Shown: positions 1-11,270 of the stretch, piece by piece | Position numbering within the stretch: position 1 is the first letter of the stretch | How the letters are laid out: each line of letters begins with the position of its first letter | NCBI GenBank assembly: GCA_951406725.2 | Contig: OX597829.1 | Span: 20,832,001 to 20,896,000 of the forward strand | Reading direction: 5' to 3' | DNA: 64,000 bases | Source: Octopus vulgaris | Lineage: Eukaryota | The notes under the pieces: generated by a model | The model's database searches: none | The model's input: the letters and a program-made list of their open reading frames with translations, nothing else | Told to the model about the DNA's origin: nothing | Position numbers and translations under genes: made by a program

Positions 1-1660
1 CGTTACCTGATCTAACAGCTTGATACCTCTAATTACTTGTATGTAGGGCGTCACCTTTACCTTTGTAGCAGTTGACTATTATGCTACTACACCAGTCACT
101 AGGTATGACTCCTTCGTGTATCACCTGGTTAACTATACGAGTGACTAGGCTATAGCCGTCACTGCCAGATATTTTGAGCATCTCTGCAGTAATTCTTGGG
201 CCTGGGGCTTTCCCTGTCTTCATGCTTCTAATTGCCTTAACTACCAAGGAACTGTCAACTTGGATAGCTGGTTCCTCTGTTGGGTCGACATTCGGCAGAC
301 TCTCTTTATGCCACTCATTTTCTTTATTCAGCAACCTTGCATAGTGGCATCTCCAAACCTCTCTCTTTGCATCCTCATTTAGTGCAAGTGAACCATCATC
401 CATGCGAACACATTTCTCTCCTACCACATCACGATTCTCTCTCACACACTGTCTTGCAGCACGAAATACTTCAAATCTTTGGTCCTAACGTCGCAGAACA
501 TTGGCAAATTTTTTCTTATCTGCTTCCCCTCTGGCTAAATAAACCTGTCTCCTAGCTTCTCTTTTCGCAGTCTGATATAAAACCCTGCTACCGCCATTCT
601 TCCAGTCCTTCCAAGCCTGTCTCTTGTCTCTAATAGCCCTATCTACGAACACAGGTACACCACGTTACCCTGGGACGAGATGGGACTTTGCTCCATCCAC
701 AGATCTGGTCAGTGGCTCTCAGCAGATTGTCCCGCAGAAACCTCCAGCTGTCTTCCACATTATGTGAAGCTATATCCCCTTCTATTTCGTCGAATGCTTC
801 GAGTAGGACGTCTCTAAATCTCCGTCCATTTGCAAGATCTTTAAGTTTCCAGACCCTTCTCCTCCGAGCTGGTCTTCTTCTGGGCAGCCATTTGGCCCTG
901 ATCCTGAAATCGCTAACTACTAATCTATATTGAAGAGTACATTCTTCGCCTGGGAAGGTTTTGGCATTTATAAGCAGCCTTCTTTCCCTCTTTCTGGCGA
1001 GGATGTAGTCGATCTGGCTAGAGTGTCTGCCAGAACGGTATGTGACTAGGTGAGAGGTGGGTTTCCTGAAGTTGGTATTGCAAATCATAAGGTCATTTGC
1101 ATCGCAGAACTCCAGCAGCCTGGTTCCCTCCTCATTGCGAGAACCAAAACCGTAGTCTCCATGTATGCCGTGGAAGCCCCCGACATGCCGTCCAACATGC
1201 CCAATGAAGTCACTTGCCACAAAGAGAAGGTCTCTGTCATTTGTCAACGAGGTAGTCTGTAATAGGGTGTCATAGAATCGGTCTTTCTGTCCTTCAAGTA
1301 GCCCCGGTTGAGGAGCAGATGTCAAGATAATGGTAGCTAACCTATGATGAAGCACTAATCTAATCTTAAGTATTCTGTCACATACTCTGACTACCTCGAT
1401 TACCTTATCAACCCATTTCTCTGCAAGGAGTATACCCACGCCCCCTACCCAGTCAGTATTCCCTGCCCAGAAAATCTTGTACCTGTGTTCTTTGCCGGTG
1501 AGGTGCCTAGCGGAACCTCCTCTCCACCTTCTTGGATGCAGCACAAATTCAAACGTCTCCGTTCAAGCAGCTCGATAATCTCACCAGACCTACCTTTCAA
1601 TGTGCGAACTCTGAGGGTGTGGGAGGTGTGGGCCTGCGAGACCCTGGGATGAGGGACAGC
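1..1660 (-). mobile_element. RTE-clade LINE fragment (APE endonuclease plus start of RT), frameshifted, continues beyond window start
   Basis: ORF 639..1544 has GVGILL, xDFxGHVG, NTNFRK and SQIDYIL APE motifs. ORF 29..445 has KAPGP..ITAEMLK and YKGKGD RT N-terminal motifs. Confidence 0.9.
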
Positions 1661-1965: not shown

Positions 1966-2928
1966 GCGAAACATCAAATGTCGAAAAGCGTGTGCCAAGA
2001 GCTGAAAGCCGAAATTTTTAAGGGAATTTGGGAGAAAAGGACAACCCTGAAATAAAGGAGGAATATAGAAAATGCATCGTCTAAGACAAATAGAAAACTA
2101 GCGGCATCCTGTTTACAAGACAGAGAGATAAATAATAGAGAGGGACAAGATAGAGAGATTGTAGTGATCCTATAACGGTGCGCGCGCGCACCGTCCATTT
2201 CTGTTTCGCGCGTGCGAATCGGTGCTTTCACCACAGGAAGGGCCCTCTCACGCATGCGCGAACCACCGGAAGAACCCTTTTGCCTACGTGGCAGTTAGCG
2301 AGGCAAGGGGGTCGTAGAACGTTTGACCACTAGCAGCAGTCAGCGGCGACTTGAGACAGCAGCGACCGAGGGAGTAGGACGTGAAATATTTTCTCTCTGT
2401 CCGAACTTGATTCTAGCAGCAGTTTTACCAAAAGGCCTTTAACCAAATTGTTGCAGACCACATCTTTGACCAGTGTCGTTTTGCATTTGAACACTTTCTT
2501 ATTTTACAGCGATAAGGTTCAGCACTGACACATTTATACCAAAGGGATACCAGATAACCACTTATTGTTACTGTTACCACATTAGAGAATAAAGTAGTAT
2601 ATATATCTTTTACGTCTGCGTCTTGTTGTTTCTGACTGGTAGAATTCTGGATTATTAAAGCAACGAATAGTGATTGCCTCTCGCACCCCCTAAAAGTGCA
2701 AGAGAAGATATTCACACACTCACTAAGTTCTTTACAAGTGTGTATAGAAATGAGAGTATGAGTGTGTACTTGTATGTGTCTATATATGCAGAGGTGTGAA
2801 CCGACAGGATGAATGATGCATGCCCATATATATATATGTATATGTGTGTACGTGCGTGTATGTGTATGTGTGTGTGTGTATACATGTAGGTGTTTGAGTG
2901 CATATGTATGTGTGTATATATATATATA

Positions 2929-3384
2929 TATAAAACCGAGCATTTCACAAAAACTCACTAGAACCACCCAGCGAACTTCCACCATGGGTCATCACAATTG
3001 CTTAAGGTAAAAATGAATTCCTCGCTCTTTCGGAAACATCAATCTTCTGTATTGACCACTTTCCACCACTTTGATCTGTTTTTTGTATTGAATACGTATC
3101 GCCACCGTGGGCCACTGCATCGAACACTTTGAACATATACTTCAAACTATATATCAACTATACATGAACTATATATCAACTATACATGAAATCTAAGATG
3201 TCTGACTCCGTTGTGTATTATAAATGAATTTCTTGTGTTTGACGGCATGAGCTGTCTTTTTTTATATATAACTTTTTTTGATAAGGTTTATTTCAGGAAC
3301 TGAAACATGTTATAATGTATATATAAAAATTAAAAATTGTATAATACAGCAGCATTTTCGAACTTCATTTTTTACAAATATATA
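2929..3384 (+). repeat. 5' pseudo-LTR of Penelope-like element
   Basis: Same sequence as 7716-8171 (offset 4787). Confidence 0.95.
3278..3311 (+). ncRNA. Hammerhead-ribozyme-like motif in pLTR (second copy 8065-8098), U3-A8 core variant
   Basis: TTGATAA, stem II GGTTY/GAACT, GAAA, palindromic CATG, TT. Stem I is weak. Confidence 0.5.
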
Positions 3385-3443
3385 CCTACTCGTATACGAG
3401 CTAATCCTATTATAAATATCATATCACGTACGAGCTCCCGAAA

Positions 3444-4825
3444 ATGCCTGCTAAAAAAGACACCAACGACATCTCCTCAATAAATGAAGAGATACTGAAA
3501 GAATTGAAAAGCATAAATTCAAACCTAACAGCAGTGTTAAACAAACTCAACTTAACGCCTCGACCTTCTACACAAACTAACGAGGAAACCGAATCGAATA
3601 AAACACCCTCCGAAATATTCGAGAAAGTTGAAAATCTATGCGATACAATGACGACATTCTTCACAAACTTTACGAAACAAGAGCAACAAAAAGAAGGAAC
3701 ACATGAGAAGAACCGAGCAACTTCAACATTACAAATAAAGAACCAAGTCCTCCCCCAATGGAGAACACTACAGCGAAACAGAAAATTCGCTTTTTGGAAA
3801 ATGATACAAAATCAGAATAAAGCAGAGATTTACCAAAAATGGCTAGACTCAACACCCCTAGTCATACCCCGTAAATTACAAATCAAGCCCATCTCGGAAG
3901 AACCAGAAGAACAAAGAAAACTTAGAGAAAAAATGTCATTAGAAAAAATGAAGATAGAAATAGAACTACTTAAGCTGAGAGCTAAAACGAATGAAGAAAA
4001 AGTAAAAACCATAGACGAGGAAATCAACGAAGAAGTCATCAAACTAATAGACGACAACAATACTGAAACATTACCAGCACTATGGAATGAAGAATGTGAA
4101 AAAGAGGAACTTAAGTCCCTCCAACGATGGGAAAAGAGCGCCGTCTGGTTTCTAGATTATGAAACCAACTTCAAAAATGAACACATATCCAACAACCCCT
4201 TCATAAAATTAAGCAAATCAAAACCAAATACCAATAGAACGGAACAACCACCAAGAAATCCTACCACACTCTACACCAGAAAAGTACACCTAAAACACAC
4301 CCCACACTACCTACACCAACCCCAAAACACCTACAGAGGCCCACCACACCAGTTCGAAAATAGACATACCAACAGAGCAAAACAACCACCAAGAAATCCA
4401 AACACACTCTACACCAGAAAAATGCATTTAAAACGCACCCCACACTACCTACACCAACCCCAAAACACCATTCCACGAACCTAAGAGCCACAACATACAA
4501 TACTATAAAATACAACCCACATAACCAAACCAAAACGCTACTACCAAACATCCACCCCAGGAACCAACCATACAACCATAACAAACAACAAATGCACTAC
4601 GGAGGAAACAACTACCAACACAATATACCTGAGGAACTAAGACGTAACACTAGGTTCAACAACAGACTCCAGAACAGAGCACCACAAACTCACTCTGACA
4701 ATTATAACAACATGAGACAGATAAATAATAGCTTTGAACATAACTACACCAACCATTTTTTAGACCCCACACACAGGAACAAGGACACACGATGGCAAAG
4801 GACAAACAAAAGAAACCTCAGGTAA
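3444..4825 (+). CDS. Penelope ORF1-like protein (coiled-coil N-half, P/H/N/Q/T-rich C-half); 3444-4484 plus a -1-frame continuation to 4825
   Basis: 346-aa ORF with heptad-like E/K/L segments. The -1 frame is open from before 4442 to 4825 with similar composition. Internal 138-bp-period duplication at 4230-4469. Confidence 0.65.
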
Positions 4826-7089
4826 TTAAGATAATCAATCTCTCAAACAAAGAACTTACACCTAACGAAATAAGCATACTCTCCAAAGGACTTAAATTTA
4901 CACCCACCCCACAACGTTCTAATTATTATGAAATGAAAGATGATATTTCGGAATTTTGCAGAAAACTAAGACTCACCGAGGCATTTCAAGACAAACAAAT
5001 AGAGGAGGACTCAATAGCTAGAAACAAGAGCAATTACACCCCCACCAAAGGTAAGAATAAAGCCTTAGACCGCTATTGTGACTACATAACTAATTTCCCG
5101 TTTCAATTCATCAAGAAACAAAAACACAGCCCTAACTTCAACAAAAGAGAATGGAACGACCTCATCAAACTAAGAGAAGACAAAACAATAACAATTAAGG
5201 AGGCAGATAAGGGCAACGCGATAGTAATAATGAATACAAACAATTATAAAAATTTAGTGCTATCCCTATTAAGAGATGAAACGTATTATGAAAGGGCCCA
5301 ACAGTATAACCAGCAAAAAATAATGCATAACCTTAGGACATTAATCAACACATACCAAGAAGGACTCACGAACAAGGAGTATGAATACATCACTAACTTC
5401 AAATGCAAATCGAGTTTGTTCTATGGTATCCCTAAGGTACACAAAAGCCAAACCATTAGAGAAACGTGCAAAACATCCACCGACACACTCATCAAAATCC
5501 CTTCACCAAATGATCTTAAACTAAGACCGATAATAGCAGGGCCAGCATGTGAAACTCACCGCCTCAGCAATTTCTTAGACACACTTCTTAAACCTTTCCT
5601 AAAACACATCAAAAGCTACGTAAGAGACGATATAGATATGCTCAACCACCTCCCTAAAACAGTCAATGAGAAAACCCTTCTAGTATCATTCGACGTTGTT
5701 AATCTTTATTCTAACATCCCTCACAACCTAGGAATAGAAGCGATCACCTTCTGGCTGAATAACTACCCCTTTGAACTCCCAACTCGCATAAACAAAGACC
5801 TTATAATAGAAGGACTTAGATTCATTTTAGAGAACAATTATTTTATTTTTGACAATGATTTCTACAGGCAAAGATCGGGAACAGCGATGGGCACGCGTAC
5901 TGCACCATCTTTTGCCAACCTAGTGATGGGATACCTCGAGAAAATACTATACCGGATGACACTCAAGAAATATGGAAACACCTTCGCCACCTATATCCAT
6001 AACAACTGGAAAAGATACCTCGATGACTGTTTCATCATCTGGGACAAAGGCATAGAGAAACTTGAGGAATTTAAAATTCTATTAAATGGAATAAATGACA
6101 ATATACAATTCACGATGGACCACAACGAAAAAGAATTACCATTTTTAGACATCCTCATTAAGAAAACCGGCAACAAAATAGAGACAGATATCTACTATAA
6201 ACCGACAGACTCTAAACAGTACCTACCCTTTGATTCATGCCACCCACGACACACTAGAATGAATGTCCCTTTTTGTTTAGCTAGAAGGATTTGCACCATA
6301 ATATCAGACACAAACACCCGACACACACGTCTCCAGGAACTTAGAACCACACTCACAAATAGAAACTATCCACAGCCCCTAATAGACAGTGCAATCCAAC
6401 GGGTACTTAAATTAAGTATAGAAGACCTGAGACAAACAAAACCAAAAAAGAAAGAACAATTAAAAACCCTTCCCTACATCTCTACACACAACCCACTCAA
6501 CAATGAGGCCTTCAACACCATACTACAAAGCACAGCCCTACTAAAGGGAGACCCAAAGATGAACCGGATCCTCGAAACACACACCATCATTAAAAGTAAA
6601 CGGCAACCAAAATCCTTGAAAAGGATTTTAACCCAAGCTACACTGCACTCAACATCAACCACAAAACCAGCAGTTAGAAAATGTGGAAGGCCCAACTGCG
6701 GAATCTGTGTCATCTTGAAAGAAGGATCAGAATTTATACTGGAACAAGGCCACCAGTTCACCATTAGAACAAACTTCACCTGCGCATCAGAAAACTTAAT
6801 TTACGTCATAACATGCGCAGGCTGCAATAGGCAGTATATAGGCCATACAAAAAATAGCTTACGTAACAGGATGGCGGTGCATAAATCACAAATTAGAAAC
6901 CCTGATTACCGCAAAATACCGGTCAGCGGACACATAGATAGATGTGCTGGAAATGTAAATCCGAAATTTACAACTAACTCGCTCTATAAATTCAGTGACA
7001 ACGCAACCTTCACACAATGCCAAAACAAAGAACTATATTTCATAAAAAAATTTAGACCAAGTTTAAACACCCTGGGCCAGGAATACTAA
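4792..7089 (+). CDS. Penelope-like reverse transcriptase + GIY-YIG endonuclease (765 aa, intact)
   Basis: Motifs KGLKF.P, ADKG, YGIPKVHK, LRPII, SFDVVNLY, GTAMG, RYLDD, LPFLD, CxxxxCxxC linker, NLIYVITC..C...YIG.T and C-terminal PSLN. Confidence 0.96.
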   Translation: MAKDKQKKPQVIKIINLSNKELTPNEISILSKGLKFTPTPQRSNYYEMKDDISEFCRKLRLTEAFQDKQIEEDSIARNKSNYTPTKGKNKALDRYCDYITNFPFQFIKKQKHSPNFNKREWNDLIKLREDKTITIKEADKGNAIVIMNTNNYKNLVLSLLRDETYYERAQQYNQQKIMHNLRTLINTYQEGLTNKEYEYITNFKCKSSLFYGIPKVHKSQTIRETCKTSTDTLIKIPSPNDLKLRPIIAGPACETHRLSNFLDTLLKPFLKHIKSYVRDDIDMLNHLPKTVNEKTLLVSFDVVNLYSNIPHNLGIEAITFWLNNYPFELPTRINKDLIIEGLRFILENNYFIFDNDFYRQRSGTAMGTRTAPSFANLVMGYLEKILYRMTLKKYGNTFATYIHNNWKRYLDDCFIIWDKGIEKLEEFKILLNGINDNIQFTMDHNEKELPFLDILIKKTGNKIETDIYYKPTDSKQYLPFDSCHPRHTRMNVPFCLARRICTIISDTNTRHTRLQELRTTLTNRNYPQPLIDSAIQRVLKLSIEDLRQTKPKKKEQLKTLPYISTHNPLNNEAFNTILQSTALLKGDPKMNRILETHTIIKSKRQPKSLKRILTQATLHSTSTTKPAVRKCGRPNCGICVILKEGSEFILEQGHQFTIRTNFTCASENLIYVITCAGCNRQYIGHTKNSLRNRMAVHKSQIRNPDYRKIPVSGHIDRCAGNVNPKFTTNSLYKFSDNATFTQCQNKELYFIKKFRPSLNTLGQEY

Positions 7090-7257
7090 AACAAAAGATA
7101 AGTCCTCCGAAAGGGAGAATCGGGGTTCCACCACGGCCGCTGCTTCAAACAGACACTCACTCTGACGGAAATATGCCTTAGTAAAAAAGGAAAAAAATTC
7201 TTTCGTGCAAATCTGACCCTGATACATACGATACAGCTACGGGTCAGACCCGATTCT

Positions 7258-7715
7258 GATTGGTCAACAAGTTGATGACGTCTAGCTCTGCTAGAATGGA
7301 CAGGATACAAACAGGGGACAGTCATTAGTCAGAATATTGATGACGTCCTTTTCTGCTTGAATAGTCACCTAACAAGTACAGACAGGGAGCAGATCTAATG
7401 TAGCTATAAGTCGTGATTGGGCAGAATCTGGATGACGTCCCGCTCTGCTTGACTAACGAAGCGACTGGTCAAAACAGGAGACAAACAAGAGGCAGATATA
7501 ATGCAGCGATTGGTCAAAATAATGATGACGTCCCGTTCTACTTGACTAACGAAGCGACTGGTCAAAACAGGAAACAAACAAGAGGGAGTTATAATGCAGC
7601 GATTGGTCAAAATAATGATGACGTCCCGTTCTACTTGATTAAAGCCACCTAACGAAACGATTGGTCAAAACATTGATGACGTCACGCTACGCTAGATTGA
7701 CCACCTAACAGGCAT

Positions 7716-7722
<7 letters not shown>
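7258..7722 (+). promoter_or_regulatory. Array of about 6 ATTGG(CCAAT)+TGACGTC(CRE) units (93-bp period in the middle) ending in TATAAAA
   Basis: Units start near 7258, 7323, 7415, 7508, 7601 and 7659; TATAAAA at 7716. Function is inferred. Confidence 0.6.
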
Positions 7723-8280
<558 letters not shown>

Positions 8281-8319
8281 ATGCAAATATGGATATATAT
8301 GTGCGTCTGTGTGTATTTT

Positions 8320-9065
<746 letters not shown>

Positions 9066-9199: not shown

Positions 9200-11270
9200 A
9201 TTTCCAATATAGTGGATATATGTTTGTTAAAGAGGACAACAAACGCTAAGGCAAGATAGACATCTCAGGCCATATATGTTATTATTCCAATTCTATATTT
9301 AAGAGCGCTACCCTTTACACACTACTCTTAACGCTACTCTCAACATGCTACTCCAGGGAACTAGTAAACAGGAGAATAACGGATTGATTGCATCGTACAA
9401 CATTGCATTGCTTGTTGCTAAGTCTGGGAAGTTTCAAACAATTGGAGAAGCATTACTCCATCCAGTTATCGAAGAGGCTTTGTCAACCATTACACACAAA
9501 AAACCTGATAACACTATGAAGAAGATCCTGCTTAGTAATAACACAATTTCTTGATGCATTGATAAAATGGCCAACGATGTCAAACATCAGCTCATTAATA
9601 TTCTCCAGCGTTCTGAATTTTCTATACAAGTGACTGAGTCAATGTTTGGTGGACAATCAATGTTTGAGGATGGTATATGTTCGGTATTTCAGCGATTACT
9701 TTCAACCTTGTGGGGAAATACTGTTCACAGAAAAATTGCCACTTGATTCAAGAGGTGCAACTATTTTTCACACTCTTAAGTCTTTCCGTTTTGAACATAA
9801 TATCCCACTCAGTAATATTCTTGTCTGTGCGTCTGATGGAGCCCCTTCGATGATAGGAAGATAAAGAGGATTTTCATCTCTCCTAAAGCGTGAAATTTCC
9901 CACCAGATACTAATTTGTTCATTGCTTGGCACACTGGCAGCATTTAGAGGGGGAAAAAAATAATAACGGTAGGTTGAATGATACGCTACAGTTAGTTATC
10001 AAGACTATGAACAAATTGAAGTCCAGTCTCTTGTCTGGTTGAATTTTCCGTCAACTCTGAGAAATGATGAGGACCATACTAAACTCTTATACCATACCAA
10101 AGTGCGGTGGCTGTCAAAAGGAAACTGTGTTTTACGCTTTGTTGAACTGTTTCAAATAACCATATCTTTCTATGAAGATACTCCACTATCCGCTTCGTTG
10201 ATGACTGCAAGCTGCGATATCTCTTTTTTTCTTTGTGATATATTCACGAAATTAAATGATTTGAATAAGTTATTACAAGGAAACGGAAAAACTCCTGTTG
10301 ATTGTAAATCATTTATCACTACTTTCATTTTGAAATTGGCATTGTATAAGACTAACATTACAAAACGTCAATTCCCTCAATTTCCACAACTTGATTCTTT
10401 GAAAGATGAATTGGTTGATGAGGATTTAACTACACATCGCAGCTATTTACAATCATTGCGCAATAACATGGTGGAGCGATTTCAAAATGTTATTGCACTG
10501 AATATTCCAAATTGGCAAAGCAATCCGTTTGAGGTCGATGCAGTCGATTGTGTGGATGATGTTCAGGAGGAATTGAAAGAATTACAAAATGAAAATGACG
10601 CCATAATGCAATATCACTGTAATGGCAAAGAAGGTTTGTGGTACAATCAGAGTATATTGAATTCCTACCCCAGTTTATTGAAACATCTGAAATTACTTTT
10701 GCTTGCCTTCCCTACCTCATACCTGGTTGAATTTGGTTTTAGCCATGTTGGAGCTTTACATTCCAATAAAAGAATCATACTGGATGTGACACAACGAGGA
10801 GACATGCAGCTAAAGTTGACAAATTTGAAACCGAATGTGTCTGCACTAGCTGCATCACGCCAGATATATGGTTCTCGTTAAAAAGTTCTATTCTTTTCCT
10901 TTTTGATAGATCATTAATTATTTTTGCATCGGTTGTTCTAATCAATGGTTCATTTAGAGAGTAAAAGAAAGCGCAGGTTTACAGAAGTTAATCTGTCTGC
11001 ATAATATAGAGTTAACGTTAGAATTTTATTGATACCAATGGCAAAAATAAACCCACAATAACGGATTTGAAAACAACCGCATATTTAGTATAAACAGCTC
11101 TAACCGGGCAATGAGTCTACAATATAGTGTGTGTATCAAATAATACAGGGGTTGGGGGATGGCTAGGGGATTTTGTATCAGGGTTTTTTTATACAGGTGG
11201 GCGATGGAGCATTTTTTGGCCGATAGGTGGGCAATATTGCAATTTGGCGCAAAAAGTTTGGGAAACACTG
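9200..11270 (+). mobile_element. hAT (Buster/Charlie-like) transposon, disrupted transposase; right TIR present
   Basis: ORFs 9345, 9646 and 10039 carry SYNIALLVAKSGK..TIGE, SDGAPSMIG, LLYHTKVRWLSKG and FPTSYLVEFGFS. End reads AGTTTGGGAAACACTG. Confidence 0.9.

Follow-up and report, generated by a model that had tools for sequence, protein, structure and literature searches.

A conserved slippery heptamer at the ORF1/reverse transcriptase overlap points to programmed -1 frameshifting in an endonuclease-bearing Penelope-like element of Octopus vulgaris

How is the reverse transcriptase (RT) of a transposable element produced when its reading frame opens inside the end of another open reading frame (ORF) and lies one base behind it? 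The question is raised by an endonuclease-bearing Penelope-like element (PLE) in a 64,000-nt stretch of Octopus vulgaris DNA (GenBank assembly GCA_951406725.2, contig OX597829.1, positions 20,832,001 to 20,896,000, forward strand). The whole stretch is referred to as the window, and all positions are counted from its first base (Table 1). From the letters of the window, it had been proposed that the RT-endonuclease may be made as a fusion to the first ORF (ORF1) by programmed -1 frameshifting at the heptamer U UUU UUA. Our analysis supports this proposal; on sequence grounds, we put the probability that a shift at the heptamer makes an ORF1-RT-endonuclease fusion at roughly 80%, the interrupted ORF1 of this copy and an ATG in its RT frame being the caveats.

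The register, the -1 offset, the nucleotide-level conservation, the lack of a downstream fold and the stop spacing were computed directly. At the junction the ORF1 tail frame reads ...N-H-F-L-D..., which puts T TTT TTA in the X XXY YYZ register. The RT frame is exactly -1 to the tail frame, is closed upstream by a TAA and stays open from the heptamer to 7089, all as in the original prediction. TTTTTT[A/G] has a single occurrence in the 3.6-kb coding span of the element, and about 0.007 in-register occurrences were expected in the 60-nt overlap. The + strand of the window contains 509 canonical heptamers, 32 of them TTTTTTA. A lone heptamer is thus not rare, and the evidential weight rests on relatives.

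An alignment of 63 RTs (the window and 62 of the 120 listed homologs) led to 97 loci, 17 on genome contigs and 80 in metagenomes, and the 55 which cover the RT N-terminus plus at least 90 nt upstream were examined. An ORF of at least 120 amino acids (AA) ending in the RT open region was found at 13 of these loci in the frame fit for a -1 shift and at two loci in the other frame. At 11 of the 13 loci the overlap has T TTT TT[A/G] in register, seven with A and four with G at the last position; the junction of L068 reads A AAA AAC and L058 has no heptamer. When L110 from a later search is added, heptamer and -1 offset are kept in 11 of 14 two-ORF relatives, whose RTs are 28-50% identical to that of the window. 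The remaining loci were mostly distant types, many with one long frame. Outside the junction, the codons of 13 elements offer 11,272 positions, and TTTTTT[A/G] stands in register at none of them. For the encoded amino acids, the per-locus chances of NNT-TTT-TTR multiply to 10^-11.8 over 12 elements; kinship is not discounted in either figure. Searches of the genome collection with a single RT query, of viral contigs, and of the genome collection with an ORF1 profile found nothing, and the family of G001, present in 2 of 122 genomes, added no new junction.

At three heptamer loci (L045:1-975, L046:917-2845 and L055:2-787), the first ORF looks by eye like a GDSL/SGNH esterase, without a Pfam match. 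They have the same heptamer, with the stop 11, 10 and 0 codons away, respectively; hence, the junction is common to different first ORFs. Esterases are mentioned in Neptune-like elements (PMC5408684; papers given by PMC number are cited for the parts consulted). Many relatives (L001-L017, P0029, P0041, P0060, P0074) were found in bacterial metagenome-assembled genomes or under the names of bacterial symbionts, most likely due to host contamination.

Other copies with ORF1 and RT in one frame did not occur, and no indel was found between 4465 and the RT in the runs. Two subfamilies about 6-12% apart are represented, whose contigs meet at 4737-4766; judged from these contig ends, the stretch 4737-4766 is suggested to be identical between both. 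In contigs of the runs guessed to be RNA, no joint ends at the heptamer; since the contig type is uncertain, this was not counted as evidence.

Conservation was also followed in the proteins, using the last 42 residues of the 72 ORF1 homologs of at least 330 AA. Phe-Leu (FL) is present within these residues in 62 of the 72, compared with five FL in the 6,480 residues directly upstream. In none of the 62 tails is FL preceded by K, E, Q, M or W, compared with 53 of 101 for FL elsewhere. The codons for K, E, Q, M and W cannot end in T, and the absence of these residues therefore fits T TTT TTR rather than a protein motif. Among 79 shorter ORF1 records, FL was found near the end in 26. Taken together, sequence comparison indicates that the junction is real and under nucleotide-level selection.

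Of the ten homologs without FL, HFF is found in two and [Y/D/S]FR close to the end in four; three are unexplained, and the tenth is P0127. In P0125, P0129, P0156 and P0263, F-R or F-H replaces F-L 9-14 residues from the end; at the DNA level only the junction of L110 was seen. Such tails possibly reflect slippage of one tRNA on U UUU, or a different signal. P0127 passes from ORF1 via FFFV into the RT N-terminus, matching an extra base in the T-run; it points to this same junction, is the sole in-frame form seen and is a mutation or a sequence error. Longer, fused ORF1 forms were searched for and none was found, a null result of little weight. The best 150 of 858 ORF1 homologs contain none above 546 AA.

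Does ORF1 reach the heptamer at all? In this copy, its main part ends early, and the tail lies in another frame. The two are separated by a 19-nt deletion: 19 further nt follow 4464 in the contigs of 6 of 7 covered runs (3 of 3 plus 3 of 4); the one run of raw reads contributed none. Runs X19 and X20 represent a sister subfamily with one unit of the internal duplication, in which the joints skip a net 119 nt. With the 19 nt present or the net 119 nt skipped, ORF1 continues in the tail frame; the family ORF1 thus comprises about 466 AA and runs through the heptamer. This join was obtained by arithmetic on the indel tables of the runs. The end of the ORF1 tail in the window agrees with those of P0271, P0272, P0142 and P0164: FL, W at +11 and a stop after 20 residues are common to them.

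The main part of ORF1 encodes a conserved all-helical domain followed by a low-complexity, N/R/Q-rich region. An AlphaFold2 model of residues 1-269 has four long helices with a mean pLDDT of 86.6, and the modelled domain is likely a coiled coil. A search with a four-sequence ORF1 profile gave the 858 representative homologs. Pfam searches of 90 family members gave no family common to more than one of them, solved sequences gave generic coiled-coil matches only, and Foldseek with the ORF1 model gave no match at E ≤ 0.001. ORF1 (3444-4250) defines an unnamed all-helical protein family. Several Trp residues are near-invariant in this family.

For the shift, its products and the stimulator, we infer the following. 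In an intact copy, ribosomes would initiate at ATG 3444 and translate ORF1, and most would terminate at 4823, yielding free ORF1 protein of about 466 AA. A fraction would slip back by one base, with the Phe and Leu tRNAs on UUU UUA, and read ...NHF[L/F]-RPHTQEQ... on to 7089, giving a fusion of about 1,220 AA as a minor product. The shift would thereby set a ratio of ORF1 to fusion like that of gag to gag-pol.

What would stimulate such a shift? The original prediction had noted no clear stimulatory structure downstream, which was borne out: 4763-4860 folds at -1.7 kcal/mol (z +2.4), and 200 of 200 shuffled sequences fold at least as well. A hairpin or pseudoknot stimulator was rejected; a simple H-type search gave two candidates, both within the range of shuffles (3 of 40 and 9 of 40).

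The distance to the ORF1 stop was found to be constrained. It is never below 10 residues after FL in the 62 homologs and exactly 10 in 23 of them; among the shorter records, two had less than 10, both apparently fragments. Of 12 DNA relatives, six have 10 codons, three have 11-12, two have 17 and 19, and the distant L055 has 0. The element in the window, P0271, P0272, P0142 and P0164 have 20 codons, with D-T-[R/G]-W at +8 to +11 common to the four window-like proteins; P0155, of the same type as the P0271 group, has 26. The 10-codon state is mostly that of one clade with about 25% median identity, and small P values there overstate the case. A 10-codon periodicity (16 of 30 distances of at least 14 in post-hoc bins, P ~0.01) was not accepted, as the bins were chosen afterwards and kin cluster. 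Slowly terminating last residues were not significantly enriched over all 62 tails. The Trp at ORF1 +11 (window 4792-4795, P0271, P0272, P0142, P0164, P0155, L019) sits where the 10-codon clade stops; its origin from a former stop is unproven, and other long tails have no such bias at +11.

Under impaired recycling, queues of ribosomes form about 30 nt on the 5' side of a stop (PMC7993997, PMC7544199). Most likely, the stimulator would be a pause behind a ribosome that terminates at the stop of ORF1, which is 10 codons past the heptamer (20 in this subclade). With a queue at 10 codons, the A site of the trailing ribosome would be on the first codon past the heptamer, so that translocation off the slip site would be blocked; at a spacing of 20 codons, a third ribosome would give the same geometry. 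A queue would tie enzyme output to the translation load of ORF1. Slow decoding of UUA might perhaps help, by analogy with HIV-1 (human immunodeficiency virus 1), where the UUA-reading tRNA modulates the shift at U UUU UUA (PMC6547452). That the shift is fully collision-driven and free of structure, with the terminating ribosome as stimulator and the stop one or two ribosome-lengths away, is a bolder reading, which we hold to be less likely than not. A bound protein or stalling by the nascent peptide may act instead.

Several points weigh against frameshifting. A bare heptamer usually gives a low shift rate, and G at the seventh base, as in four loci, makes a weaker slip site. No consistent 3' structure was found, only L019 of 13 elements folding well (z -4.3). 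The loci are not independent: L018 and L025 are 71% and L045 and L046 57% identical, the rest 23-50%, and five come from one dataset. L110 combines a -1 overlap and an RT frame of 782 codons having ATG-GAA with no heptamer. L058, L085 and L093 are without the heptamer arrangement and look decayed; the latter two are close relatives. The ORF1 of the window copy stops at 4482-4484, before the heptamer and in another frame, and owing to this interruption the copy is unlikely to feed in-frame ribosomes to the heptamer, although its RT frame is intact. Finally, in the six closest RT homologs, without exception, the start is called 6-20 residues ahead of the first motif, at about the place of ATG 4792. 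Of 54 homologs, 31 have a G-initial codon directly behind their called start, compared with 30% expected.

These called starts would fit an RT-endonuclease made mainly as a separate, unfused protein that initiates at ATG 4792 in the window and at CTG, GTG or ATG in relatives. Its template would be a shorter RNA, or ribosomes would reinitiate after terminating ORF1, and the heptamer would be minor or vestigial in this subclade. We consider this, the most serious of the alternatives, improbable. The context of ATG 4792 is good; with 20 ATGs between 3444 and 4792, leaky scanning to it is unlikely. No ATG is found ahead of the first conserved RT motif in 9 of the 11 heptamer loci (the motif start in L055 is approximate), L045 has two ATGs after the heptamer, and 38 of 91 parsed RT homologs start at or past this motif. 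A sister family, which turns up as a loose end in three runs, has a CTG around the 4792 place, and the 30 nt shown lack an ATG, as judged by eye. D-T-[R/G]-W with W at +11 (P0271, P0272, P0142, P0164), or W at +11 (P0155, L019), fixes NTG-G in the RT frame; W is found in 14 of 62 tails, at about 1.3% of residues compared with 0.9% upstream. The overlap favors G after NTG in any case, because NTG-A would stop ORF1, and the codons behind the called M residues of the RT homologs are not visible. ATG-GAA in L110 occurs without a heptamer, whereas FL with an NNT-compatible residue before it is retained in the subclade of the window. Own start and frameshift may coexist in this subclade.

It is very doubtful that no ribosomal shift takes place, FL plus a short tail being a C-terminal protein motif of ORF1 or the polymerase inserting a U at the six T. 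A clade of about 25% median identity retains FL with exactly 10 residues behind it, which a protein motif could explain, but such a motif leaves the codon choice, the NNT rule and the distance range of 10-40 unexplained. For polymerase slippage, the frames of P0127 are joined by one extra base at the T-run; a run of six T is short for such slippage, and no indel was found at the T-run in 7 covered runs, although contigs drop rare variants. Least credible is a 3' splice acceptor at TTTTTTAG with RT mRNA spliced from an upstream donor, for although AG directly follows the T-run in 7 of 12 elements, the window included, and introns occur in PLEs (PMC8557442, Fig. 1 legend), 5 of 12 T-run elements have TTTTTTG-T or TTTTTTA-T, the residue after L has no G-initial codon in 19 of 62 ORF1 homologs, and splicing does not account for the fixed NNT-TTT-TTR register in ORF1.

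The element was classified by its architecture. The RT is of the Penelope type (GxKF, DKG and core motifs) with 834 homologs; Pfam RVT_1 matches the RT frame at E 1.1e-6 with 28.9 bits, slightly below the cut-off of 29.6. A C-terminal GIY-YIG domain (PF01541, E 4.2e-7) was found at residues 685-772 of this frame. The terminal repeats (pseudo-long terminal repeats, pseudo-LTRs) are 456 nt long and 99.3% identical. Penelope-type RT, fused GIY-YIG and pseudo-LTRs together characterize an endonuclease-bearing PLE, and the C-x4-C-x2-C linker at 6682 agrees with the C-x2-5-C-x2-C of Neptune/Nematis (PMC8557442). By the feature definitions of that paper, the sequence is that of a Neptune/Nematis-type endonuclease-bearing PLE, not narrowed to one clade. 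It differs from canonical single-ORF Penelope elements in its separate conserved ORF1 and from Athena/Terminon elements, whose RT lacks a fused endonuclease, in the GIY-YIG fused to the RT.

A hammerhead motif is usual in the terminal repeats of canonical elements. An Rfam search of 2500-8500 gave no hammerhead at E ≤ 1, which minimal variants could escape, and only microsatellite-driven matches below the cut-off; a core-pattern search gave one unconvincing minus-strand match. (TA)n and (TG)n are the flanks seen around the element, with no dedicated search for telomeric repeats; the flanking DNA resembles a microsatellite-rich animal genome. No second copy was found within the window. The 3' repeat array at 7259-7722 likely acts as a promoter for a downstream tandem copy. 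TATAAAA at 7716 forms the first bases of the 3' repeat, and the 5' repeat opens with the same TATAAAA; a (TA)n microsatellite target could perhaps rebuild a TATA box at the 5' repeat. On either side of the element, at 29-1562 (-) and 9982-10881 (+), lie fragments that by eye resemble an RTE-type long interspersed element (LINE), with pieces of endonuclease and RT, and the remnant of a DNA transposase.

Table 1. Positions of the element's features in the window, and relatives grouped by heptamer.
Feature	Position	Strand	Remark
5' terminal direct repeat (pseudo-LTR)	2929..3384	+	starts at TATAAAA merging with flanking (TA)n
ORF1, main part	3444..4484	+	ATG 3444; early TAA 4482-4484 in this copy
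Internal ORF1 duplication	4228..4469	+	units 4228-4331 and 4366-4469, 89% identity
ORF1 tail frame	4364..4825	+	true C-terminus of the family ORF1
19-nt deletion site of this copy	4464..4465	+	loss cuts ORF1 off from its tail
TAA closing the RT frame upstream	4741..4743	+	
RT-endonuclease frame	4744..7089	+	781 codons, open throughout
Slippery heptamer T TTT TTA	4756..4762	+	in -1 register
Spacer, heptamer to ORF1 stop	4763..4822	+	60 nt (20 codons), unstructured, read in both frames
In-frame ATG of RT	4792..4794	+	A at -3, G at +4; overlapping TGG encodes Trp of ORF1 codon +11
ORF1 stop TAA	4823..4825	+	
RT motif GLKF	4888	+	
RT motif DKG	5206	+	
RT motif GTAMG	5878	+	
RT motif RYLDD	6013	+	
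C-x4-C-x2-C linker	6682	+	between RT and endonuclease
GIY-YIG region	from 6796	+	
Imperfect repeats of ~90 nt	7259..7722	+	contain TGACGTC six times and ATTGG five times; end at TATAAAA 7716
3' terminal direct repeat (pseudo-LTR)	7716..8171	+	followed by (TA)n
Relatives with TTTTTTA			L018, L019, L021, L023, L025, L045, L046
Relatives with TTTTTTG			L002, L020, L029, L055

Endonuclease-bearing PLEs are usually annotated as single ORFs with the RT beginning at the first Met. If frameshifting at the heptamer is true, a widespread lineage has a first ORF that is still uncharacterised, together with a fusion of the gag-pol kind, and many RT entries in databases would be N-terminally incomplete. 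To our knowledge, programmed -1 shifts generally require RNA structure or a bound protein; a natural heptamer with a stop at a fixed ribosome-length distance would offer a direct test of whether queuing behind a terminating ribosome drives a programmed shift. In the literature consulted, which did not extend to subscription journals, Repbase or Dfam, no account was found of a slippery heptamer or of stop spacing in endonuclease-bearing Penelope elements; PMC6431247, PMC3846280 and PMC6515669 served as further background only.

How does the junction compare with known systems? We take U UUU UUA to be the heptamer of HIV-1 gag-pol, where a hairpin lies downstream. The element shares with HIV-1 this heptamer, often the same following G, and the logic of a structural protein extended into an enzyme; in contrast to HIV-1, no stem-loop is present, and what is kept instead is the stop distance, which is 10 codons or more and in many cases exactly 10 or 20. 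Slow decoding of UUA in HIV-1 is described in PMC6547452. In SARS-CoV-2, the stop position modulates the shift, the stop being 5 codons away and proposed to aid refolding of the pseudoknot (PMC8168617), whereas no structure is present here and the stop is one or two ribosome-lengths off. In the killifish element repeat.CL27 (PMC12602865; Neptune according to its authors), the end of an esterase-like ORF overlaps the RT at -1, by eye. Its candidate slip site is G UUA AAU directly ahead of the stop, not U UUU UUA, and the consulted part of that paper is silent on frameshifting.

Among PLEs, Neptune/Nematis-type elements share the Penelope-type RT, the C-x2-5-C-x2-C linker, the C-terminal GIY-YIG, the pseudo-LTRs and (TA)n insertion (PMC8557442), and canonical endonuclease-bearing elements are described as single-ORF (PMC8557442, Craig et al. 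2021). Compared with Neptune/Nematis, the element in the window has a separate helical ORF1 of about 466 AA overlapping the RT at -1, and no hammerhead was found. According to the Fig. 1 legend of PMC8557442 and its preprint, ORF1 in some PLEs is 'separated by a frameshift with a pseudoknot'. Those elements share a helical, likely coiled-coil ORF1 joined to the Penelope RT through a frameshifted overlap; unlike them, the element in the window has a fused C-terminal endonuclease, terminal repeats and a (TA)n site, and no pseudoknot or hairpin past the heptamer. The frameshift-pseudoknot mark in that figure of Craig et al. reportedly refers to the endonuclease-less Athena/Terminon group. Relative to the known PLE frameshift, the junction described here is new in that it belongs to an endonuclease-bearing element, is without a pseudoknot and has a conserved stop distance.
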